From positions 1 to 59,386 of the forward strand of contig JAWLBL010000039.1 of assembly GCA_041687695.1 (NCBI GenBank): a DNA stretch of 59,386 bases. Reading direction: 5' to 3'. Every line of letters begins with the position of its first letter. The first letter of the stretch is position 1. Under the pieces are notes generated by a model that did no database searches, had not been told where the DNA came from, and saw nothing but the letters and a program-made list of their open reading frames with translations. This stretch comes from Myxococcota bacterium. Lineage in GTDB: Bacteria; Myxococcota_A; UBA9042; PHBI01; JAWLBL01. Positions 9,809-52,133 of the stretch are shown one piece after another. The translations under genes and the position numbers were made by a program.

Positions 9809-12031
9809 ATGCGCCGCCGCCTGCTGTCCCTGTGTCTCGCCCCCGCGCTCGCCCTCGCCGCCTGCGGCGACGAGCCCGCCACGACGCCCGATGCCGCGGA
9901 CGCGGCCGCCGAGGTCGACGTGACGGAGCCCGACGCGGACGGGGACGTCCCCAGCGAGGACGACACCGGCGCCGACGCGACCGAGGATGTCGAGGCTGAG
10001 ACCACGGCGGACGTCGAGGCGGACGTCGACCCCGGCCCGCCGGCGTTGGTCCTGCAGGCGACCATCGCCGCGCCGGCCGCCGACCCGTTGACCGACGCCG
10101 AGGTCGTCAGCTGCCCGGTCTACCTGGACGAGCGCTGCGAGGACGGCCAGCGGCTGCGCTGCGACCTGTACGACACGGGCGCCGCGAGCTGGGCGGACGC
10201 GCCCGACCCGCTGCTGCGGCGCGCCTACCTGTACGACCGCTGGTACGACCGCTTCAGCTCGCCCGACGGGCAGACGGCCGAGCGCCTGTTCAAGGTCGCG
10301 ATGCCCGGCGACGCCCCCGAGGAGGTCTGGACCAGCGCCGAGGCCTTCGCCGGCTGGGCGGGCGAGGGCGACTCGGCCATCTGGACGGGCGCGGCGCTGA
10401 ACGCGGCCATCTACCGCTACGCCGCGACCGGGACCGAGGCCGACTACGCGCGCATGGAGGCCAAGGTCCGCGATCTGGTGCTGAAGTTCGACGTGACCGG
10501 CATCCCCGGCTACCTGGCGCGCTACCACTTCCTGCTGATGCCCCCCGGCGGCCCGCAGAGTGACCAGCACGTGCTGCGCCACGAGGACACGTCGCCGCCC
10601 AAGCCGCGCGACAACCCCATCGAGGCGCCCGAGGCCATCGCGGGCCTGCCGGCCGCCTACCTGGACGGCGTCCCGGACTCGGAGGGCACGCTGGTGAAGG
10701 GCGTGCCCTACTGGAACGGGCACCCGTCCATCGACCAGTACTCCGGGCCGATGATGACCTTCCCCATCGCCTGGCACCTGGTGAAGGACGAGGCGCTCAA
10801 GGGGCGCATGGCCCACCACCTGACCTGCTACCTCAAGCGTCTCGAGCGGCTGGAGATCATCAACCTGCAGGCCAACCCCGAGGTGCTGGAGGCGATGACC
10901 AGCTACTTCGGTGGCGGCGTGCTGCAGCTCGACCCGGACGACGTCGACCTCACCCAGATCGACCGCATCGTCGGCTACTACCACGCGGGCTTCAACGCCA
11001 AGAACGCCGACACCTTCGACCGGACCTGCCCCGACACGCTGCCGACCACGCCGACGCGCGTCCTCGACGCCGCCAGCGACAGCTTCTTTCTGGACATGAT
11101 CGACCTGGCCTCGGATCTCCAGGAGACGCAGGTCCGCCCCGGTCAAATCGACCACTTCTACGCGCCCAGCGTCCGCGGCGGCGACGCCAGCCACATGATC
11201 CACCTGGCCGTCATGGCGTTCATGATGACCGGCGACGAGCAGTACCGGAGCTTCCTGTTCGACGAGCTGGTCGATGAGGTCGGCGCCCTCGAGGTGGCGC
11301 GCACCATGATGGCGTTCCGGCTGCCCGACTGGTGTTTCAAGTTCTACGGCGACCACATCACCTACACGACGCACTGGCAGCTCATCACCATGCTGGCCGA
11401 CTCGCCCCTGCGCGACGCGATGGTCGAGGTGATGGCCGGCGAGGCCTGGGACAAGGCGCTGAAGACCCACCACAGCGCCCTGTTCGGCGTGATGTTCGGC
11501 TCGAGCGTCACGCCCGAGCAGCACCCCGACGTGCCGACCGCCATCGCGCAGGCGGTGGCGCAGCTGCAGGCCTTCGGCGGCAACGACGGCGTGCTCGACG
11601 CCCCGCGGCGCACCTACACGCGCACGCGCCAGGAGATCATCGACGCGCTGCCCGAGGGGCTCACCCTGCGCTGCCCCACCGAGGAGGAGCGCACCCAATG
11701 CGAGGACGGCGGGGATCTCTTCGGCATCCCGCTCGAGTCCAAGCCCATCACCTTCACCTGCGACGGCCGCCCCGGCGAGTGCGTCATGGCCGACGGCAAG
11801 TGCGCCAACGCCCTCGCCTCCCACGGCCTGCCGCCCGACCTGCGCATCTACGGCGATTTCCAGTGGCAGCGCAGCCCCTTCGACATCGGCGACCTGGCCG
11901 GCCTGCAGGGCGCCAAGCAGTCCCCCGGCCGCGATCTGGCCGAGCCCTACTGGATGGCCCGCCACTACGGCTTCATCACCGAGGGCGCCGGCACCGTCCT
12001 CGCCTGGCGCCCCGCCGGCGACTGCGAGTGA
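9809..12031 (+). CDS. Hypothetical lipoprotein, about 740 aa
   Basis: Lipobox LAAC after MRRRLLSLCLAPALA; acidic linker; GC3-biased frame; SD gaggag. Confidence 0.8.
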   Translation: MRRRLLSLCLAPALALAACGDEPATTPDAADAAAEVDVTEPDADGDVPSEDDTGADATEDVEAETTADVEADVDPGPPALVLQATIAAPAADPLTDAEVVSCPVYLDERCEDGQRLRCDLYDTGAASWADAPDPLLRRAYLYDRWYDRFSSPDGQTAERLFKVAMPGDAPEEVWTSAEAFAGWAGEGDSAIWTGAALNAAIYRYAATGTEADYARMEAKVRDLVLKFDVTGIPGYLARYHFLLMPPGGPQSDQHVLRHEDTSPPKPRDNPIEAPEAIAGLPAAYLDGVPDSEGTLVKGVPYWNGHPSIDQYSGPMMTFPIAWHLVKDEALKGRMAHHLTCYLKRLERLEIINLQANPEVLEAMTSYFGGGVLQLDPDDVDLTQIDRIVGYYHAGFNAKNADTFDRTCPDTLPTTPTRVLDAASDSFFLDMIDLASDLQETQVRPGQIDHFYAPSVRGGDASHMIHLAVMAFMMTGDEQYRSFLFDELVDEVGALEVARTMMAFRLPDWCFKFYGDHITYTTHWQLITMLADSPLRDAMVEVMAGEAWDKALKTHHSALFGVMFGSSVTPEQHPDVPTAIAQAVAQLQAFGGNDGVLDAPRRTYTRTRQEIIDALPEGLTLRCPTEEERTQCEDGGDLFGIPLESKPITFTCDGRPGECVMADGKCANALASHGLPPDLRIYGDFQWQRSPFDIGDLAGLQGAKQSPGRDLAEPYWMARHYGFITEGAGTVLAWRPAGDCE

Positions 12032-39601: not shown

Positions 39602-42490
39602 ATGCCCCCGACCCTCGACCGCCCGCCCGCCGCGCCTGCCCTCCGGCCCTCGCTGCCCCTGGCCCACCGCCTGCCCAACCCGCCGCCGGTCTTCGTCGGC
39701 CGCGACGACGAGGCGCGCGCCCTGGCCGAGCTCGTCACCCGCGCCCCGGTCACCCACGTCCAGGGCCTGGGCGGCCTCGGCAAGTCGGCCCTGGTCGCCC
39801 ACACCCTGCACCGCCTCCTCCCCGACCGCGCCGCCCGCTGCTTCGTCGTCCGCCTGCGCCCCGGCGCCGACCTCCGCGCCGTCCTGGTCGACGTCGTCCG
39901 CGCCCTCGCCGCCGCCGAGGGCGTCCACCTCAGCGACTGGCAGGCCCACCTCTCCGAGCCCGACCTCGCCCTCGCCACCGCCCTCGACCACGCCGACGCC
40001 GGCCGCTGGACCGTCGTCCTCGAAGACCTCCACCACCTGCCCGCCCCCGCCGACCGCGCCGCCCTGCTCGAGCCGCTGGCCACCTACGCCCGCGACGCCC
40101 GCTGGATCGCCACCAGCCGCGAGGCCCCGCCCGCCGGCCTCCTCCCCGGCCAGGAGCTGACCCTCGGCCCCCTCTCCCCCGCCGGCCTCACCGCCCTCGC
40201 CGCCCACTGGGCCCCCGACCGCCCCGACGCCGACCGCCGCGCCGCCGTCGCCGACAGCGCCGGCGCCCCCTGGCGCCTCCGCCAGGCCCTCTTCGGCCAG
40301 CCCCTCGCCCCCGCCACCCCGGCCGAGCGCGACCCCCTCGGCGGCCTCTCCCCCGACGCCCGCGCCGCCCTGGGCGTCCTCGCCCTGCTCGACCGCCCGC
40401 TGCCCGAGGCCACCCTCGCCACCCTCCCGCAGGTCTCCCGCCCGGCCCTCGACCTCCTGCTCCGCAGCGGCCACCTCGAGACCACCGGCGGGGGCCTCGC
40501 CGCCCACGGCCTCAGCCGCTCCCTCGCCACCGAGCACACCCCCGCCCCGGCCCGCGCCGCCCTGGCCCGCGCCCTGGTCGCCCCGCTCGCCGCCGCCCCC
40601 GCGCCCGAGGCCCAGCTCGAGGCCCTGCGCCTCTCCGCCCGCCACGCCCCCGACGCCCTGCCGGCCACCGCGCTCGCCGTGACCCCGACCCTGGTCGCCG
40701 AGGGCTTCGCCCCCGAGGCCTGGGCCCTGCTCGCCTCGGCCGACGCCGCCCTGCCGCTGGCGCTGCGCCTGCGCCTGGCCCTGGACGCTGGCGACCTCGA
40801 CGCCGCCGTCGCCCTCGGCCCGCTCCCCGACGCCGCCCCGCCCGAGGCCGAGCTGGCCTGGGTGCGGGTCCTGTACGCGACCAACCGCTTCCCCGACGCC
40901 GCCCGCCGCGGCGCCCAGCTCGCCGCGACCGCGCCCCCCGATCTGGCCAACGAGGCCGCCCTGTTCGCCGGCCGCGCCTCCCTCGTCCTCGGCCAGGCCG
41001 CCGACGCCCTGGCCCTGGTCGACCCGCCGCGCCCCGCGCCCGACCCGACCACCCGCCTCTTGCTCGAGGACATCCGCATCTGCGCCTGCAACGCCCTGGG
41101 CCGCGCCGCCGAGGCGCGCGCCCTCGCCCGCGGCGCCATGGCCGAGTTCGAGACCGCCACGCCGCGCGTCCGCCGCCAGGTCGGCCACTACCTGGTCCGC
41201 AGCCTCTACATGCTGGGCCTGCTCCCCGAGGCCTCGCGCCTGCTCGCCCGCACCCTCGACGAGCTCGGCCCCCGCGCCCTCAGCCTGCAGGTCGGCCGCG
41301 GGGCCCTGTTCAGCGAGGCGGTCATCAGCCTCGAGAACGGCCGCCTCGCCGCCGCCGCCGCCGCCACCGAGCGCCTGCCCGCCTACTTCCCGCCCTCGGC
41401 CGGCGCCTGGCGCGCCATGGTCGACGCCCTGGCCCTGCAGGTCACCCTCTTCTCCTACGCCTTCGCCCCCGCCCGCATCGCCGACGTCATGGCGGCTGGC
41501 GAGCGCTTCGGCGCCCGCTCCATCGTCGCCGCCGCCCGCATGCAGCAGGCCCGCTGGGCCCTCGAGACCGGCGCCCCCCTGAGCTGGGACGACCAGGCGC
41601 TGGCCGGCGACGACCCGCACAACGTCATCGCGCGCGGCTGGAAGCAGGTCCACGCCGCCCGCCACGGTCAGGCCGACCCCGCGGCCCTGCAGGCGCCCTC
41701 GGACGCCGCCGGCGAGGCCGCCTTCCTGCGCCGCCTGGCCAGCGCCGCCGCCGCCTTCGTGGCGGGCGACGTCGCCTCGGCGGCCGCCCAGGCCCGCGAG
41801 ACCGCCGAGCTTGCGGACACCCAGGGCTACGGCCTGCTCGCCCCCGAGGCCTTCGAGCTGCTCGCCTGGACCGACGCCGCCCAGGGTCGCCTCGACGCCC
41901 TCGAGGCCGCCGCCGCCCGCCTGCTGGCCACCACCGAGGCCATGCCCGCCCCGCGCCTGGCCGCCCGCGCCCGCCTCCTCCTCGCCGCCGCCCGCGGCGA
42001 CCTCCCGGCCCTCTTCGCCCTGGCCCAGCGCCCCGACTGCGCCGCCGCCCGCCGCGCCCGCGCCCTGCTCGGCGCCCCCGCCCCGCTCGACCGCGCCGAG
42101 CAGCGCCTGATCCAGGCCCTGCGCCCCCTCCTGCCCACCCCCGCCCCGGCCTGGCTGGGCCCCACCGACGGCCCCCCCGACTGGCTGCTCGACCTCCCCG
42201 CCGGCCGCGTCCTCCCCGCTGCCGGTGATCCCATCGACCTGACCCGCACCCCGCAGCTCCTCCGCTTCCTCTCCGCCCTGGCCGACGCCGGCGGCGAGGC
42301 CTCCAAGGAGACCCTCGTCGGCGCCGCCTGGGACATCGCCGACTACCACCCCCTGCACCACGACAACCGCCTGCGCATCGCCGCCCGCAAGCTCCGCCAG
42401 CTCATCGAGCCCGACCCGACCGCCCCGACCCGCCTCCTCACCACCGAGGACGGCTACCGCCTCGGCGGCCGCGTCCTCGTCCTCTCCTGA
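39602..42490 (+). CDS. STAND-like P-loop ATPase with helical repeats and a C-terminal OmpR-type winged HTH
   Basis: FVGRDDE, GLGGLGKS, VVLEDLH, TSRE; C-terminal KETLV..AWD..DNRLRIAARKLRQLIE..LLTTEDGYRL. Confidence 0.8.
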   Translation: MPPTLDRPPAAPALRPSLPLAHRLPNPPPVFVGRDDEARALAELVTRAPVTHVQGLGGLGKSALVAHTLHRLLPDRAARCFVVRLRPGADLRAVLVDVVRALAAAEGVHLSDWQAHLSEPDLALATALDHADAGRWTVVLEDLHHLPAPADRAALLEPLATYARDARWIATSREAPPAGLLPGQELTLGPLSPAGLTALAAHWAPDRPDADRRAAVADSAGAPWRLRQALFGQPLAPATPAERDPLGGLSPDARAALGVLALLDRPLPEATLATLPQVSRPALDLLLRSGHLETTGGGLAAHGLSRSLATEHTPAPARAALARALVAPLAAAPAPEAQLEALRLSARHAPDALPATALAVTPTLVAEGFAPEAWALLASADAALPLALRLRLALDAGDLDAAVALGPLPDAAPPEAELAWVRVLYATNRFPDAARRGAQLAATAPPDLANEAALFAGRASLVLGQAADALALVDPPRPAPDPTTRLLLEDIRICACNALGRAAEARALARGAMAEFETATPRVRRQVGHYLVRSLYMLGLLPEASRLLARTLDELGPRALSLQVGRGALFSEAVISLENGRLAAAAAATERLPAYFPPSAGAWRAMVDALALQVTLFSYAFAPARIADVMAAGERFGARSIVAAARMQQARWALETGAPLSWDDQALAGDDPHNVIARGWKQVHAARHGQADPAALQAPSDAAGEAAFLRRLASAAAAFVAGDVASAAAQARETAELADTQGYGLLAPEAFELLAWTDAAQGRLDALEAAAARLLATTEAMPAPRLAARARLLLAAARGDLPALFALAQRPDCAAARRARALLGAPAPLDRAEQRLIQALRPLLPTPAPAWLGPTDGPPDWLLDLPAGRVLPAAGDPIDLTRTPQLLRFLSALADAGGEASKETLVGAAWDIADYHPLHHDNRLRIAARKLRQLIEPDPTAPTRLLTTEDGYRLGGRVLVLS

Positions 42491-42617
42491 CCGCGCCAGT
42501 CGCGACAGAGGACGCCGCTCTCAGAGTCCAGCCTCGCAGCCACTGCCCCTTGCTCCATGCCGAGCGATGACCCATCCTTGCCATGGGCCGCGACGCGGCC
42601 ACCGTCGGAGTACGCTC

Positions 42618-44018
42618 GTGCCCACACCCGCTCAGAACATCGAGTCGTCACGTCGCCGTTCAGGGCTCAGCCTCAATCACCTGGCCGCCCTCGCTGGCCT
42701 CGAGCCCGCGCGGTTACAGGCGCTCGAGGCCGGTCACGACGAACCGACGCCCTCTGAGCTGGACGCCGTGGCGCGCGTCTTCGGCCTGCCCATGCGCGAG
42801 TTCCTGGCTGGACTCGGGGACGAGACTCCGCTGGGCCAGCTCTTCCTGCGAAACCAGGAGCTTCTCGAAGCCGGGGCGGGTGATGCCTTGCTCGAGCTGT
42901 GTCAGTACGGGGCCCAGCAGGTCCTGGGCGAGTTCGTTCGGTGCGTCCATTACCTGCACCGACTGATCCCGAGCGCCGCTTCGGATGTGACGACGCTCTT
43001 TCCCGGGCAACCCCTCGACGCGGCTCCCCCCTTCGGAATGGATCGCTTCGCTGCCGGGGTGCGACGCATGCTGGCCATCGCGCCCGACGCACCGATCGAG
43101 TCGATGCGAGGCGTCATGGATCGGCTCGGCATCGAGGTCTTCTTCGTCAGCGAAGACGTCCTCTCGGCGCCCTTCGACGGCGCCTCCGTCGCCTCGCCGC
43201 GGCCGGCCGTCCTCGTCAATCTGGTGGGCGGACCGAGTTGTTGGTGGCGTATTCGGATGACGCTGGCCCATGAACTGGGGCACATCCTGCTGGATCACCG
43301 CAGCCGGGAACACGATGTCGCCATCATCAGCCCCCGGCCTGGCGAGCGCAGGTCACGCTGGAACTTCTTCGACGGTCACGAGGCCGTCGAGCGTCGCGCC
43401 AATGCCTTCGCCGCCCACTTCCTCGCTCCGGCGGAGGCCATCATGGCCCTGGTCGACGCCGGAGATCCGACCGCCGAGGCGTCGGTCACCGCCGTCTGTC
43501 AGCAGTTCCAGATCGGCAGGACGACGGCCATCTATCGTCTGGCACACACGTTCCGGTTGGACGTCCGCACCCGCACCCGGATGCTCGCCCGCGACCCGGG
43601 CGAGGTGCACGGGCCGCTCCACGTGGACGCCGTCAGCATCTCCGAGATCGGCCTCAGGGCCGGCCGGCTGAGGGAGGCCGTCGTCGGCGCCTTGCTCGCA
43701 GGGCGCGTCAGCCGGGTCGAAGCGCGCGAGATGCTGGGATTGGGGCTCTCCGACGCGCTCCCCGACGATCCCAGATTGTCCGAAGCGGATCGGAGGCCGC
43801 TGCGCGACCCGGTGCAACGGGTGTTGTCGGCCGCGCGAGCATTTCTCGGAGACAGCCCGGACACACGCGATTTCGAACCCGTCCGAGCGCGGCCTGCGCC
43901 GGGAGGCTGGCGGGTCGAGCTCGTGCGCTATCTCGACGTGAACGAAGTCGAGCCGAGGCCCGACGTGGCGCTTCGCGTCACCTACGACCTCTCTCAGGTC
44001 TCCTGGATGAACGCGTGA
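42618..44018 (+). CDS. XRE-HTH + ImmA/IrrE metallo-endopeptidase with an extra C-terminal domain
   Basis: RRRSGLSLNHLAALAG..LEAG..PTPSELDAVARVFG; FDGAS; RMTLAHELGH; ERRANAFAAHFLAP. The GTG at 42618 follows ggag (the track starts at 42567). Confidence 0.88.
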   Translation: MPTPAQNIESSRRRSGLSLNHLAALAGLEPARLQALEAGHDEPTPSELDAVARVFGLPMREFLAGLGDETPLGQLFLRNQELLEAGAGDALLELCQYGAQQVLGEFVRCVHYLHRLIPSAASDVTTLFPGQPLDAAPPFGMDRFAAGVRRMLAIAPDAPIESMRGVMDRLGIEVFFVSEDVLSAPFDGASVASPRPAVLVNLVGGPSCWWRIRMTLAHELGHILLDHRSREHDVAIISPRPGERRSRWNFFDGHEAVERRANAFAAHFLAPAEAIMALVDAGDPTAEASVTAVCQQFQIGRTTAIYRLAHTFRLDVRTRTRMLARDPGEVHGPLHVDAVSISEIGLRAGRLREAVVGALLAGRVSRVEAREMLGLGLSDALPDDPRLSEADRRPLRDPVQRVLSAARAFLGDSPDTRDFEPVRARPAPGGWRVELVRYLDVNEVEPRPDVALRVTYDLSQVSWMNA

Positions 44019-44539
44019 GCTCCGAGGCGAGCCGGGCAGCGCCGGCTCACGAGGTCCAGATCGCAGAGAACGCTTGCGTCCTCGCCTCGATCTGCATGGT
44101 CCTTCGAGCTCATGGTTCCCCGACGAGCCAGCAAACCCTGCGGGAGCGCCTCGTCGGCACACGCCGTGGCTACTCGCTGCGCGACGCGGCCACGCTGGTC
44201 AGCGGACGCTACCTGGAGCCGGACATCGACGACCCTTCGGCCATCGAGTGGCTCCGGGCGCAGTCGAACTCCGGCCGCCTGCTGATCCTGCAGATGTTCG
44301 CGGCCCGACTTCACCAGCTGGCTCTCGCCCGAGGACGAGATTCAGGCCCGTTCGGACCGCTGCCATCGAGCCCAGGCTTTCTTCACGCCATCGTCGTCGT
44401 CGGGACCCGGGACAGGGACTTCCTCTACCTCGATCCCTGGTTCGAGGGTGCCGACCAGCCGTTCAGCATCGGCGAAGATGCGTTGGCCGAGGCCTGGCAG
44501 GCCGGAGTCCTGGTGGTCTACGGACCGCCCGTCCCCTGA
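44015..44539 (+). CDS. Stand-alone C39-like papain-fold cysteine peptidase
   Basis: Q...NAC(VLASICMVL), HAIVVVG, YLDPW, LAEAW; GTGA overlap with the upstream stop. Confidence 0.75.
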   Translation: MSSEASRAAPAHEVQIAENACVLASICMVLRAHGSPTSQQTLRERLVGTRRGYSLRDAATLVSGRYLEPDIDDPSAIEWLRAQSNSGRLLILQMFAARLHQLALARGRDSGPFGPLPSSPGFLHAIVVVGTRDRDFLYLDPWFEGADQPFSIGEDALAEAWQAGVLVVYGPPVP

Positions 44540-47657: not shown

Positions 47658-47900
47658 ATGGTCCGCACGGTCATCTCCCTGGACGAGGAAGACAAGCGCT
47701 GGCTGGACGAGCGCGCCGAGCGCGAGGGTGTTCCCATGACGGAGCTCGTGCGCCGAGCGGTTCGTCTCCTTCGCGCCTCGGAGTCCGAGCCGAGCTTCGA
47801 GGAGCTGCTGGAGTCCGTCCGCGGCACCTGGACGCGAGGAGATGGCCTCGAGTGGCAGACGCGGCTCCGGCAGGAGTGGGATGAACGTCCTCCTCGATAG
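47658..47900 (+). CDS. RHH/CopG antitoxin (VapB-like)
   Basis: MVRTVISLDEEDKRWL..MTELVRRAV..RLRQEW; overlaps the toxin start. Confidence 0.85.
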   Translation: MVRTVISLDEEDKRWLDERAEREGVPMTELVRRAVRLLRASESEPSFEELLESVRGTWTRGDGLEWQTRLRQEWDERPPR

Positions 47901-48252
47901 CGTGATCCTCATCGATCTCCTGAACGGATCGAAGCCGGCCGCCAACTACGTCCGCGAGCTCGGCCCAAGCGCCTTCGTCTCTCCGATCACCCGGGCCGAG
48001 GTCCTCAGCGGACTGGACCCCGAGTCCGCAGCGGCGCCGCGAGCCTTCCTGAACCGGTTCCAGTCGGTGGACATCGACTCCACCACCGCCGACCTGGCGG
48101 CCAGCCTCCGGCGAACGCACCGTTGGAAGCTCCCTGACGCCTTCCAGGCCGCCCTCGCGCAGCAGCACGGCCTCGTGCTGGCCACGCGCAACACCCGGGA
48201 CTTCGACCCAAAGCGCCATGCCTTCGTGACCGTGCCCTACGCTGCGCCGTAG
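47881..48252 (+). CDS. vapC: PIN-domain VapC toxin
   Basis: LLDSVILID, SPITRAEV, KLPDAFQAA, LATRNTRDF. Confidence 0.9.
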   Translation: MNVLLDSVILIDLLNGSKPAANYVRELGPSAFVSPITRAEVLSGLDPESAAAPRAFLNRFQSVDIDSTTADLAASLRRTHRWKLPDAFQAALAQQHGLVLATRNTRDFDPKRHAFVTVPYAAP

Positions 48253-48364
48253 CCGCTCTCACTGGCGATGGAGCAGGGAGTCTCACCTGTCTCAGATGCC
48301 TCGTCGGCGCAGCGATGCACAACTTCGCCAGCTGACGATGACATCGTATCGCAAAGATGGGACA

Positions 48365-48779
48365 TCGACTCGATGCGCTCTCGCGCCGAAGGCGCTGTGG
48401 AGCGCGCCGGCCATGCCGGCGCTATATGGGGCTGCGATCAGCAACGCGCTTGGCACGTCCCCGTCGCCGACCTGGCCGGCGCCCTGCGACCTGCAGGACC
48501 AGCAAACGAAACGTCGGCGCGATGCGCTCTCGCGCCGAAGGCGCTGTGGAGCGCGCCGGCCATGCCGGCGCTATGGGGCCGCGATCAGCTACGCGCTTGG
48601 CACGTCCACGGCGCCGACCTGGCCGGCGCACCGCGACCTGCAGGACCAGCAAACGAGGCGTCGACTCGATGCGCTCTCGCGCCGAAGGCGCTGTGGAGCG
48701 CGCCGGCCATGCCGGCGCTATGAAGCTGCGATCAGCTATGCGCTTGGCACGTCCCCGGCGCCGAAAAGACCGGCGCGCT
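48365..48779. repeat. 147-149-bp tandem array, left part (about 2.8 units)
   Basis: gatgcgctctcgcgccgaagg at 48372, 48521 and 48668; each unit carries GGAGC-gcgccggc-cat-gccggcgc and a degenerate inverted copy. Confidence 0.92.
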
Positions 48780-48890: not shown

Positions 48891-49241
48891 TCAGGTCGGA
48901 CCCAGCCCGAGGTAGAGTGAGAGCCCCGTGTCGATGGCGGCCAACTCGTCCGGCGCGACGACCCCGTACACGCGACGGAGGCGCCGCTTGTCGATGGAAC
49001 GCAGCTGGTCGACAAGGGCCCAGGATGGCTTGACGAGGCCGCTCTTGCCGGGCTGAAGCGCGGGGTAGAGCGCCCCGTGACCAGCCGTCCCGGTGACGGG
49101 GACGACGGCCACCAGGGGAAACCGCTGGTGCCCGATGACGTCCGGGTCACTCACCACCACACAGGGTCGGAGGCCGCGCTGCTCGTGGCCCAGGGTCGGG
49201 TCGAGTTCGGCCTGGACGACCGTACCGCGGACGAGGTTCAC
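48891..49241 (-). CDS. mazF: PemK/MazF-family endoribonuclease toxin
   Basis: RGTVVQAELDPTLGHEQRGLRPCVVVS, VVPVT, SWALVDQLRSIDKRRL. Confidence 0.92.
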   Translation of the reverse strand: MNLVRGTVVQAELDPTLGHEQRGLRPCVVVSDPDVIGHQRFPLVAVVPVTGTAGHGALYPALQPGKSGLVKPSWALVDQLRSIDKRRLRRVYGVVAPDELAAIDTGLSLYLGLGPT

Positions 49242-49543
49242 GACGCCTCCTCGACCCAACCTTCGCCGGGGACCCACCGGACCGGCCGGCCGGCGGCGGG
49301 GTCCAGCAGATCGTCGTCGCCCTCCGCGGCGGCGGCCATCCACTCGCCGAGCCCCGCGGCGGCCAGCTCGTCCGTCTCGGGATGCGGATTCACCAGCGAC
49401 GCCTCCAGCGCGTCGCGCCGACGGCGGTCCAGCTCGTGCGCGATGGCTTCGGAGATGAAGCGGCTGCGGTTGCTCGCGAGGCGGTCGATGCGCTCGACCA
49501 GCTCTGCGGGCAGGGTCACGGTGACTCGCGCGGTGGCCGACAT
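49238..49543 (-). CDS. RHH antitoxin
   Basis: RVTVTLPAELVERID..NRSRFISEAI; GTGA overlap with the toxin; TCATAC repeats upstream (about 49573-49589). Confidence 0.85.
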   Translation of the reverse strand: MSATARVTVTLPAELVERIDRLASNRSRFISEAIAHELDRRRRDALEASLVNPHPETDELAAAGLGEWMAAAAEGDDDLLDPAAGRPVRWVPGEGWVEEAS

Positions 49544-49649
49544 GACATCCTCCAGCGGCGGCGGGGGCGGAGTATGATCATCGTATGAGCGCAGGCGGCC
49601 GTCATCAATGCCCAGCCTGCGGGAGGTGGCGGGCTCGAGCGCTCGGTCC

Positions 49650-49962
49650 GCGACCTGCAGGACCAGCAATCGAGGCGTCGACTCGATGCGCTCTCGCGCC
49701 GAAGGCGCTGTGGAGCGCGCCGGCCATGCCGGCGCTATGGGGCTGCGATCCGCCAAGCGGTCGGCAGGTCCAAGGCGCCGACGTGGCCGGCGCGCTGCGA
49801 CCTGCAGGACCAGCAAACGAAGCGTCGACTCGATGCGCTCTCGCGCCGAAGGCGCTGTGGACCGCGCCGGCCATGCCGGCGCTATGGGGCTGCGATCAGC
49901 TACGCGCTTGGCACGTCCCCGGCGCCGACGTGGCCGGCGCTCTGCGACCTGCAGGCCCAGCA
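49650..49962. repeat. 147-bp tandem array, right part (about 2.1 units)
   Basis: The same unit occurs at 49685 and 49832. Confidence 0.92.
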
Positions 49963-49979
49963 GCCGTGCCCTCCTCGCC

Positions 49980-52133
49980 TCACCCGGCGGGGGCGGGGCG
50001 GAGCGGGACGCGGTGGTGACCGTCGGTGAGGGCCGGCGGGCTGACGGGGAGGCGGCCCTTGGGGCCGAACAGGCCCAGATAGACCTGCAGGGCGTCGGCG
50101 CGCGCGGTCGCCGGGAGGTCGAATCGGACGGTGTCGCGGACCAGCTCGCGCGGGCGCCAGCGCTGGGGCGGGTGCAGGCCGTGGGTCAGCGGGTGGTCGG
50201 CCAGGGCGACACGGCGGCCGCGGGCGTCGTGGACGTGGACGAAGACGTCTGGGGCCTCGTTGGTGGGCCGGTCGACGGACCAGTAGCAGGTCAGCTCGTA
50301 GCGGGTGGGCGGGTCGGCGAGCTGCGTGAGCGGCTCGCAGCCGTGCAGGGCGAAGGGGCCGAGGCGCGCCGGGCCGCCGCTCAGGGCCGGGGGAGCCGCC
50401 GGGACGGTCAGAGGGCGGGCGCCGTCGAGCAGGCGCTCGAGGTGGGCCAGGCGGGACAGCACCGCGCCGCCGACCGACTCGCCGTACAGGGTCGCGACCA
50501 GGAAGGCGCTGGGCAGGCGATCGGCGGCGCGGCGGTAGCGGGCCAGGACCTGCTCGGGCGTGGGCGGGGCGGTGTCGCGCAGCAGCAGGCGGCGCGGAGC
50601 GCTGCGGGGGCCCTGGGTGACCAGGTAGGGGGCCAGCGCGGAGCCGGCGCGGCCGAAGTCGGCGGCCCACTCGTAGGGGTGCAGGGCGACCGGGCGCCGG
50701 GCGAGCGCTACGGCGATGAGGGCGTCGCTGGCGCGGTGGCTCTGTCGCCAGGTGCTGTCGGCGGCGGCGGCGGGCGTGAACAGGCCCAGGGTGTCGAAGA
50801 CGCGCGCCGGGGCCAGCCAGCCGATGCGGCCGATGTCGCGGCCGACGTACCAGCTGTCCTCGAGCGGGTCGGCCGAGGCCTCGAGCAGGTCGAACAGGTC
50901 CTCGATCATGCCCATGCGGCCCTGCCTCATGGCGGCGACGTGCTGGGGCGGGACGCCGCGCAGCGAGTCCCAGGCGTCGGCCAGCCGCTGGATGGTCTTG
51001 GGGCGGCGCCACTCGACGCCGCGGCCGTGGGTGCGGTGGTCGTAGATGGAGTAGCGGGCGTCGAGGCGGGCCAGCTGCACGCTGGTCGCGGCCAGCAGGA
51101 CCAGGGCGGCGGCGACGGAGGCGACACGCGCCGCTCGGTGCGGCAGGCCGGCGAGTCGGCCGACGCCCCAGCCCCAGCCGAGCGAGGCGGCGACCCACAG
51201 CGGCAGGGCGTGGCGCTGGTTGGGCATCCAGTCGACGTGGGCGGTGGCGACGAAGAAGAGGTTGGTGAGGGCGAGGGCCAGCGGGACGAAGCGGCGGCGG
51301 GCGGCCAGGGCGACCAGGAAGGCGAGGCCGAGGGCCAGGAAGGCGACCTCGAGCGGGCCGGCGCCCTGGGAGACCAGCGGGGCCAGGTTGGACAGCGAGG
51401 TGCCGTCGCCGGGCTTGGCGGCGAAGGTGTGGGGGAACCAGGCGCCGTAGTACAGGCGGCGAGCGAGCAGCAGGCCGGCGGCGACGGCGGCGACCGGGAG
51501 GGCGACAGGCAGGGTCTGGCGGAGGCGGGCCAGCGGTTGGGGGCGCTCGAGCAGGGCGGCCAGGGCGAGCGTCAGGACGTACAGGGGCGCCTCGGGGCGG
51601 GTGGTCGCCAGGGCCAGGGTGAGGGCGCCGAGGACAAGCCCGCTGCGGCGGCTGGGCGCGTCGAACCAGGCGTGGAGCGCCCAGGCGTAAGCGACCAGCA
51701 GCGCCAGGAACGAGGGGGTCTCGAGGCCTTGCAGGGCCCAGAAGGCGACGTAGCTGTTGGCGGCGAGCAGCAGGAGCGGGACGACCGCCAGGGCCGGGGT
51801 CAGGCGCAGGGCGCGGCGGGCGTAGGCGAAGCAGGCGGCGAAGAGGCCGGCCATGCTGACGAGGCCCAGGCCCTTGGTGAAGGTCACGCCGTCGGCGCCG
51901 AGGGTGAGGCCGAGCGCCTGCAGTAACACCCACAGCGGGTTCGAGAAGCCCTCGACGCGCTCGCCTGGGTTGTAGACCAGGCCGTGGCCCTGGGTGAGGT
52001 GCTCGGCGTAGCGCAGCGAGATGTACATGTCGTCCACGGTGCGCGGGGCGTAGTAGACGAGGTGGGCGAGGGTCGCGAGGGCGGCGAGGGCGAGCAGGGC
52101 GGGGGCGAGGCGGGGGCGGGCGAGGTGAGGCAT
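49980..52133 (-). CDS. GT-C-type membrane glycosyltransferase-like protein
   Basis: DDMYISLRYA..GHGLVYNPGERVEGFSNPLW, GLETP, TRPEA, FPHTFAAK; C-terminal Ig-like domain (VFVH..DH..W). Confidence 0.78.
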   Translation of the reverse strand: MPHLARPRLAPALLALAALATLAHLVYYAPRTVDDMYISLRYAEHLTQGHGLVYNPGERVEGFSNPLWVLLQALGLTLGADGVTFTKGLGLVSMAGLFAACFAYARRALRLTPALAVVPLLLLAANSYVAFWALQGLETPSFLALLVAYAWALHAWFDAPSRRSGLVLGALTLALATTRPEAPLYVLTLALAALLERPQPLARLRQTLPVALPVAAVAAGLLLARRLYYGAWFPHTFAAKPGDGTSLSNLAPLVSQGAGPLEVAFLALGLAFLVALAARRRFVPLALALTNLFFVATAHVDWMPNQRHALPLWVAASLGWGWGVGRLAGLPHRAARVASVAAALVLLAATSVQLARLDARYSIYDHRTHGRGVEWRRPKTIQRLADAWDSLRGVPPQHVAAMRQGRMGMIEDLFDLLEASADPLEDSWYVGRDIGRIGWLAPARVFDTLGLFTPAAAADSTWRQSHRASDALIAVALARRPVALHPYEWAADFGRAGSALAPYLVTQGPRSAPRRLLLRDTAPPTPEQVLARYRRAADRLPSAFLVATLYGESVGGAVLSRLAHLERLLDGARPLTVPAAPPALSGGPARLGPFALHGCEPLTQLADPPTRYELTCYWSVDRPTNEAPDVFVHVHDARGRRVALADHPLTHGLHPPQRWRPRELVRDTVRFDLPATARADALQVYLGLFGPKGRLPVSPPALTDGHHRVPLRPAPAG

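Follow-up and report, generated by a model that had tools for sequence, protein, structure and literature searches.

Organization of the locus

The stretch of DNA analysed here (59,386 nt from a Myxococcota genome of 73% GC; hereafter, the window) carries on its forward strand two adjoining genes, which encode an XRE helix-turn-helix (HTH)/M78 peptidase fusion protein and a small C39-type cysteine peptidase. This pair looks like an undescribed toxin-antitoxin system with a protease, and not the usual RNA-cutting enzyme, as the toxin. The unit comprises the following features:

42607..42610, + strand: likely ribosome-binding site of gene 1, GGAG (from the sequence)
42618..44018, + strand: gene 1, XRE-HTH/M78 (ImmA/IrrE, COG2856) fusion with a C-terminal tail; 466 aa, proposed antitoxin-repressor
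42651..42803, + strand: XRE helix-turn-helix, residues 12-62 (Pfam); residues 41-49 and 59-63 contact the peptidase in the model
42846..42851, + strand: L77-R78, putative M78 self-cleavage site directly C-terminal of the HTH
43035..43553, + strand: M78 zinc-peptidase domain, approximately residues 140-312, with H218-E219-x-x-H222 and E258 (alignments, Foldseek)
43662..43751, + strand: terminal helical motif, residues 349-378, the main peptidase anchor in the model
43785..44015, + strand: tail, residues 390-466, helix and four-stranded sheet (structure prediction); part of the predicted interface
44015..44018, + strand: GTGA start/stop overlap of genes 1 and 2 (translational coupling; from the sequence)
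44015..44539, + strand: gene 2, stand-alone C39-type cysteine peptidase with Q15/C21/H124/D140; 174 aa, proposed toxin

Gene 1 starts with a GTG codon, 7 nt downstream of the GGAG motif, and the position of the start is the same among homologues. The GTGA overlap that the initial annotation had described is present, and the spacing between both genes ranges from -4 to +28 nt in all 32 loci measured. The excess of A/T-ending codons was also real: the G+C content at third codon positions (GC3) of genes 1 and 2 is 0.82 and 0.81, versus 0.96-0.99 for seven neighbour genes (35.6-47.6 kb). Likewise, the GC3 of both genes was under the median of Pfam-named neighbours in 19 out of 19 loci, a comparison in which the neighbour gene calls are biased to high GC3.

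Pfam identified HTH_3 (residues 12-62, E 1.5e-7) and Peptidase_M78 (residues 213-308, E 2e-8) in the product of gene 1, both above cut-off, and gave nothing useful for the tail; the translation contains all the motifs previously quoted, i.e. an HTH, a HELGH peptidase, a terminal helical motif and extra C-terminal residues. The predicted structure (predicted local distance difference test, pLDDT, 92; predicted template modelling score, pTM, 0.88) orders these parts as HTH, helical linker, M78 domain, terminal helical motif and a helix plus four strands. Its best Foldseek matches were CapP and IrrE, with the CapP alignment spanning only 191 columns, and the best PADLOC profile was RmrA, the antitoxin of RosmerTA (E 2.7e-16), followed by CapP; NCBIfam matches were well under cut-off. 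Indeed, the third zinc ligand (Glu), the HExxH motif and the XRE HTH that define RosmerTA/XRE-COG2856 fusions are all present in gene 1. Pfam detected no GAF domain in gene 1 or in the tails, and there was none among the listed fold matches of the tail.

Homologue searches with gene 1 retrieved 62 proteins, around 50 of which form a tight family of 440-550 aa. All 48 aligned members share H218, E219, H222, E258 and R78, and the M78 catalytic residues are also invariant in the 27 rows of a second alignment. The arginine equivalent to R78 occupied all 23 rows with a residue at that position, and the residue before it was L or F in 20 of these.

Gene 2 encodes a stand-alone C39 peptidase

The Pfam model Peptidase_C39 (PF03412) matched residues 14-57 of gene 2 with 27.8 bits (cut-off, 22), and 13 of 27 partner peptidases at E 0.1. 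These 27 aligned proteins show only 17-36% identity and share invariant Q15, C21, H124, D140, Q148 and P149, in agreement with the 174-aa Q/C/H/D enzyme initially proposed. In all of them the catalytic Gln is within the first 20 residues, which leaves no room for a signal peptide, as had been supposed; this is a judgement from the alignment and not from a predictor. A profile search retrieved 222 clusters, at 50% identity, that reach E 1e-10 and, since 148 of the best 150 relatives are of 197 aa or less, we consider that the enzyme is stand-alone. ABC-transporter families were not found among 109 proteins scanned around 23 loci, consistent with the annotated lack of a transporter, and neither were the delivery families PAAR, VgrG, Rhs or CdiA, the relatives of gene 2 being themselves stand-alone.

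PADLOC assigned no family at E 1e-5 to any of the four peptidases scanned, which did not match the RmrT toxin profile. A single-sequence search with gene 2 yielded only itself among 781 candidates; the family was recovered via the neighbours of gene 1 and a profile. The matches of this profile in the PDB were weak, with 9l5u at E 0.004 and 8ssm, 12aj and 8ssk at E 0.035-0.26. An insert of around 20 residues precedes the catalytic His in 23 of the 27 aligned peptidases; those of L037, L030, L027 and L120 lack it, and this subgroup may act on a different substrate. A single record, P0081, on one 6.7-kb contig, contains M78, tail and C39 peptidase in one chain without the HTH, and this fusion could be a read-through error.

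The two genes form a conserved pair

We scanned 178 loci with profiles for the gene 1 core, the tail and the peptidase, the last one seeded from 12 of those loci. The peptidase gene was directly downstream of gene 1 in 40 of the 45 rows with a core score of at least 164 bits; after removing five duplicates, it was present in 35 of 40 distinct loci and, because three of the five misses are at a contig edge, in 35 of the 37 with downstream DNA. All 41 loci with a peptidase match contained the close type of gene 1, including a broken member (L039). In the reverse direction, a search of 401 genomes with the peptidase alignment retrieved seven matches in six genomes: two in the genome studied here, L026, three new intact pairs and one remnant. 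Six of the seven are downstream of an intact, tailed gene 1, while the remnant consists of only HTH fragments followed by a broken peptidase. The co-occurrence that the initial annotation proposed to check was thus found in both directions, and an intact peptidase without gene 1 was never seen in the reverse search or in the locus scans.

Although 222 clusters make for a sizeable peptidase family, the pair is sporadic, with peptidase matches in only five of the other 400 sampled genomes of the phylum. Most of the named hosts are Myxococcota, and one record each is titled Acidobacteria and Alphaproteobacteria. The genome studied here contains a second, divergent copy (C1:123514-125468; L019, ca. 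10009-11969), whose products are 36% and 27% identical to those of the window; a type IIG (MmeI-like) restriction-modification gene lies 5 nt from the end of this copy, which is preceded by a 273-aa open reading frame (ORF) without Pfam match. Kin are not independent, but a single recent spread is made less likely by the low identities and the unrelated flanks. In all, these sequence comparisons leave us in hardly any doubt that the two genes constitute a conserved mobile pair.

The two genes decay unequally. The peptidase alone is interrupted in seven of 39 loci (L022, in a complete genome, L101, L103, L108, L109, L114 and L119), with breaks at differing positions, and gene 1, which is ca. 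2.7 times longer, was broken alone in none; both were broken in one locus and another was cut by the contig end. In this count, six loci show gene 1 only partly and all loci were found through gene 1.

Partner genes are exchanged among relatives of gene 1

Among more distant relatives of gene 1, 25 of 60 callable downstream ORFs joined an iterated PIN profile; Pfam by itself identified just three of the 60 as PIN-like, and single downstream ORFs matched the AbiEii and Gp49 families (AbiEii-like and RelE-like toxins). Those distant relatives that align up to the end of the core stop around 10-40 residues past it, and the tail is confined to the peptidase-partnered clade. In a quick tree built from 75 cores, one branch, with a Shimodaira-Hasegawa-like approximate likelihood ratio test support of 99, united the 33 rows partnered with a C39 peptidase and four rows with a different tail. 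For the labels of this tree, L116 and L117, whose partner genes are cut off, were assigned by their tails to the subclade described next, and PIN partners were called by eye and later checked.

The members L035 and L036 of this subclade (L035:8001-10233, L036:7935-10210; also L117:4808-6343) contain a helical-looking tail of around 130 residues and a 240-aa partner with a conserved His followed by a conserved Cys, which is unrelated to the C39 profile and matches 25 unnamed clusters of the ESM Atlas. Tail and partner switch together here, so that tail type follows partner type. From the order of its motifs, we read this partner as a possible permuted papain-like enzyme, and consider these proteins as a second candidate family of protease toxins. 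A partner similar by eye to the His...Cys protein also occurs downstream of a distant XRE-M78 gene (L016:206-871).

Gene 1 protein and peptidase are predicted to form a complex

Modelling of full-length gene 1 protein with the peptidase, each with a 27-row alignment, produced a complex with interaction prediction scores from aligned errors (ipSAE) of 0.82, 0.82 and 0.81, versus 0.00 for the best of three controls, in line with the association anticipated by the initial annotation. Of solved complexes, 116 of 157 reach the ipSAE mark, as do two of 215 mismatched pairs; these rates are rough here because our own alignments were used. At least 90% of the contacts agreed between runs, with a partner pLDDT of at least 84. 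We know of no similar solved complex, and effects of likeness on the score are possible. The model supports binding, without showing it, and we deem it highly probable that both proteins form a direct complex.

The predicted interface comprises residues 1-4, 41-49 and 59-63 (HTH), 365-378 (helical motif) and 395-444 (tail, with around 18 residues in the confident interface) of gene 1, and residues 18-19, 49-51, 64-88, 119-121, 134 and 153-167 of the peptidase; the M78 domain (140-312) contributes no listed residue. The best-scored contacts, i.e. the 25 pairs with the lowest error, involve XRE helix residues 44-49, helical motif residues 365-377 and residue 395; the remainder of the tail contributes further contact. 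By elimination, the tail may be what covers peptidase loops 18-19 and 119-121 in the model.

It had been proposed that the tail restrains the protease. The tail is indeed part of the predicted interface, but the best contacts are with the HTH and the helical motif, and one tail-poor natural variant (L025:7983-9712), which has only 27 residues after the core and lacks the sheet of the tail, keeps an intact, coupled peptidase; for these reasons, restraint would be exerted by a composite clamp rather than by a stand-alone inhibitor domain.

The tail may adopt a cystatin/PepSY-like arrangement

Modelled alone, the 77 residues of the tail form one helix and four strands (pLDDT 91). The tail profile scored above 20 bits in 49 of the first 51 gene 1 proteins, the other two being a fragment and a divergent member. 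It is also the fastest-evolving part of the protein, with a mean distance of 2.34 versus 0.92 for the M78 core and no invariant column.

In a comparison of the tail with 48,161 chains using VIA-align, the top rows showed Z scores of 5.3-6.2 and root mean square deviations of 2.8-5.2 Å over 59-70 residues, and included a designed cystatin fold, YebF, the C-terminal domain of YpeB, YpmB and tarocystatin. None of these chains reached Z 8, and lower values may reflect a common arrangement. Foldseek gave no match at E 0.001, with a designed cystatin fold as the top row; the best match of the tail profile among PDB sequences was a designed beta-sheet protein (E 0.024), and the ESM Atlas gave no usable match. 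The inhibitors Cpi1 and StbI (see below) were absent from the 50 tail fold matches listed, which excludes nothing.

The Pfam models PepSY (PF03413) and Imm35 (PF15567) matched none of 34 tails at E 1; in this genome, the Imm35 model had no match and the only PepSY match is on another contig. A profile-profile comparison with an eight-sequence Imm35 alignment gave a probability of 1.1% and a score of 14.3 over 33 columns (best of 29 shuffles, 10.5), and with PepSY a score of 13.0 (best shuffle, 13.2). The alpha-beta-beta-beta, PepSY/Imm35-like pattern initially seen by eye thus corresponds to a predicted helix plus four strands in a possible cystatin/PepSY-like arrangement, and membership of PepSY or Imm35 was not supported: the modelled tail is at most a member of that fold class, and is assigned to neither Pfam family.

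Comparison with known systems

The closest known relatives are RosmerTA and other XRE-COG2856 fusions that are encoded next to a toxin (Makarova 2009, PMC2701414; Millman 2022, bioRxiv 10.1101/2022.05.11.491447; Ernits 2023, PMC10440598). The antitoxin RmrA is reported to have diverse toxins as partners (PMC10440598), and a LexA-like role was proposed for the fusions by Makarova et al. (PMC2701414). The pair in the window resembles RosmerTA in its HTH-M78 fusion, its organization in two genes, its swappable partner, its best PADLOC profile and the PIN partners of its relatives. It differs in that the partner is a C39 peptidase without PADLOC profile match, and not a PIN, RelE or membrane toxin, in that the gene 1 family has an added tail of 75-100 residues, and in that a confident complex is predicted, in contrast to Kita RmrTA (PMC10440598).

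Free C39 peptidases have been described as proven cytoplasmic antibacterial toxins that are blocked at an exosite, in the pairs Cpe1-Cpi1, of a type VI secretion system (PMC12136450), and StbD-StbI, of contact-dependent inhibition (bioRxiv 10.64898/2026.05.07.723447); Cpi1 and StbI are reported to bind away from the catalytic centre. The top, weak PDB matches of gene 2 point to these toxins: 8SSK, 8SSM and 12AJ are StbD (bioRxiv 10.64898/2026.05.07.723447), and we take chain 9l5u_A as Cpe1, because five residues named in PMC12136450 fit its numbering. Gene 2 shares with them the C39 fold, the Cys/His/Asp residues, a proposed cytoplasmic action and, in the model, a partner bound off the catalytic centre. 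However, gene 2 lacks a delivery domain, its partner is an upstream, proposed repressor-protease and not a downstream immunity gene, and most members contain the 20-residue insert before the catalytic His. Cpe1 and StbD cleave GyrB/ParE, and the PDB matches that liken gene 2 to them are weak (E 0.004-0.26). Unlike the C39 domains of ABC transporters (ComA, LahT, PCAT), gene 2 has no fused or adjacent ABC exporter.

Gene 1 has in common with CapP-CapH, IrrE-DdrO and ImmA-ImmR the M78 fold and zinc ligands, and a hydrophobic-Arg bond behind the HTH. CapP is reported to cut CapH at Phe82-Arg83 (bioRxiv 10.1101/2022.04.27.489752) and IrrE to cut DdrO at Leu106-Arg107 (PMC12828697), both reportedly binding single-stranded DNA in a groove formed with a C-terminal GAF domain; the candidate bond L77-R78 is likened to these sites because it is a hydrophobic-Arg bond directly behind the HTH. 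Here, however, HTH and peptidase are in a single chain, no GAF was detected and the gene is co-directional with one small enzyme instead of divergent from an immune operon. Lastly, Imm35 was proposed as an inhibitor of the papain-like Tox-PL1 (PMC3482391). The tail may resemble cystatin, PepSY and Imm35 proteins in its predicted helix packed on a curved antiparallel sheet, and differs from them in lacking a Pfam match and in being fused to a cytoplasmic regulator instead of secreted or stand-alone.

Proposed mechanism and alternatives

We favour, with moderate confidence, that the cassette is a mobile RosmerTA-like type II toxin-antitoxin system where a cytoplasmic C39 protease takes the place of the usual PIN nuclease, and think it more likely than not that the peptidase is toxic and neutralised by gene 1. 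The following observations speak for this reading: the two genes co-occur in both search directions and in a second copy in this genome, one record fuses M78, tail and peptidase, a complex is predicted, the peptidase takes the slot that PIN proteins fill in relatives, gene 1 best matches RmrA, the peptidase is broken more often than gene 1, the GC3 of the pair is low, and free C39 domains are already known as toxins. In the predicted complex, gene 1 would grip the peptidase with a composite surface to which the N-terminal HTH, the terminal helical motif and the tail all contribute, and its own zinc site would stay outside the contact area. This grip would block substrate access in the exosite manner of Cpi1 and StbI, and the HTH would repress the operon. 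The M78 site might be activated by stress, which by analogy could be DNA damage or phage infection, and would then cut its own chain at L77-R78; this would part the HTH-containing portion of the clamp from the C-terminal one, lifting repression and freeing the peptidase in one step; the freed enzyme would then cut an essential host protein and stop growth. An anti-phage role has in our opinion slightly less than an even chance, we rather doubt that the tail is needed for neutralisation, and release by M78 self-cleavage is more tentative still. It is unlikely that the whole holds as a two-protease relay, in which the zinc protease senses stress, cuts itself, splits the clamp and frees the C39 protease, and where the tail is an inhibitor cassette swapped together with the toxin (a cystatin-like tail with C39, a helical tail with the unrelated His...Cys enzyme and no tail with PIN).

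Several points weigh against this interpretation. Toxicity, repression, cleavage and trigger of the cassette are all inferred; the L/F-R motif may be structural, and, given that the GAF domain of CapP and IrrE was not detected, the trigger may differ. The list of interface residues includes 18-19 and 119-121, which flank the catalytic C21 and H124, but not these two themselves. The intact peptidase of L025 coexists with a near absence of tail, while the closest relatives of L025 retain it, and, once the divergence of the M78 core was accounted for, tail and peptidase showed no significant co-divergence (partial rho 0.11, permutation p 0.10, 22 pairs). In the PDB search, AvrRpt2 (E 0.097) and C39 domains of ABC transporters (E 0.4-0.6) follow close to Cpe1 and StbD. 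The asymmetric decay would also be expected if gene 1 were a useful regulator and gene 2 a dispensable accessory, and assembly errors may account for some of the breaks. Housekeeping genes surround most loci, and a clear defence neighbour occurs in five of 21, a count without background control. Among viral contigs, the single gene 1 protein retrieved no relative, and its alignment retrieved 24 distant XRE-M78 loci, none with tail or peptidase.

The alternative that best survives, albeit improbable, is a non-toxic two-protease switch, in which the docked C39 enzyme, as a dedicated partner, processes either the gene 1 protein or a single regulatory target and thereby changes transcription without killing. 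The predicted binding and the invariance of both active sites would equally suit an enzyme and its substrate, and the tail-less L025 and the lack of shown defence enrichment also agree with a switch. Nevertheless, the peptidase occupies the slot of the PIN, AbiEii-like and RelE-like toxins of relatives and was never seen intact without gene 1 in the loci and genomes scanned, and the pair adjoins no conserved regulated gene among the 109 neighbour proteins (23 loci). Gene 1 contains a single candidate double glycine, G204-G205; many members with an intact peptidase have other residues there and, as it is not conserved alongside the enzyme, it was rejected as a C39 cut site.

Still more improbable is a toxin-antitoxin system in which HTH and helical motif hold the peptidase and the tail acts as a sensor, a phage or stress protein displacing the peptidase upon binding to it. 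The rapid evolution of the tail, without any invariant column, the location of all best-scored contacts save residue 395 outside it and the survival of L025 would be expected of a sensor; nonetheless, some 18 tail residues (395-444) are within the confident interface, tail and partner types switch together in L035/L036, and the fold is, by a weak match, one used by inhibitors of cysteine proteases. Finally, continuous destruction of the C39 toxin by the M78 peptidase, with toxicity released by M78 block, is very improbable: the invariant M78 residues agree with it, and the Kita RosmerTA protease antitoxin, which reportedly gave no reliable complex model (PMC10440598), leaves room for enzymatic neutralisation, but a confident stable complex is predicted here, with no listed interface residue from the M78 domain.

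Genomic surroundings

In the window, the genes that flank the pair encode a STAND-like regulator and two M16 peptidases and are absent from the other loci, and no convincing operator or flanking repeat of the cassette was found. The regulator is a large NTPase encoded directly upstream of gene 1 (39602-42490, + strand), with a weak match to a winged helix at its C-terminus; from its GC3 of 0.99, we consider it native and not part of the cassette. Two ordinary toxin-antitoxin pairs occur 3-5 kb downstream, one of ribbon-helix-helix (RHH) plus PIN genes (47661-48252, + strand) and another of RHH plus MazF/PemK genes (48891-49651, - strand); GC3 is 0.885 for the PIN gene at 47860 and 0.78 for an ORF at 49980 (frame unchecked). 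The RHH-MazF pair is flanked by two arrays (48339-48779 and 49503-50090) of a 147-nt repeat that contains palindromes.

The loci with a defence neighbour are L019, L027, L028, L038 and L115, with L019, L038 and L115 beside restriction genes. In L028 (138-14378), the pair is inside a bacteriophage exclusion (BREX) cluster, in the order BrxC, PglX, AbiEii-like and HTH genes, the pair, PglZ and BrxD. An XRE-M78/PIN (DUF4411) unit is near the pair in L027 (4998-6679), and a gene for a 609-aa M78 protein in L023 (449-2275). In one of the 21 loci (L032:9834-14254), the pair adjoins genes for the B and A subunits of a type II topoisomerase, the target class of Cpe1 and StbD, which is probably due to chance.

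Significance of the pair

We found no description of an XRE-M78 fusion paired with a C39 peptidase in the literature searched, which mostly leaves out subscription papers, so that absence from print is unproven. XRE-M78 fusions commonly occur next to toxins, and it is still to be explained how they neutralise partners of such variety and which substrates their own protease cleaves (PMC2701414, PMC10440598). Thanks to the confident model of the complex, the candidate bond for self-cleavage and a natural variant without the tail, both questions become testable in this clade with a few point mutants. Should gene 2 be toxic, proteases would join the classes of toxin found in two-gene toxin-antitoxin modules, and the secreted C39 weapons Cpe1 and StbD would be linked to self-directed defence.

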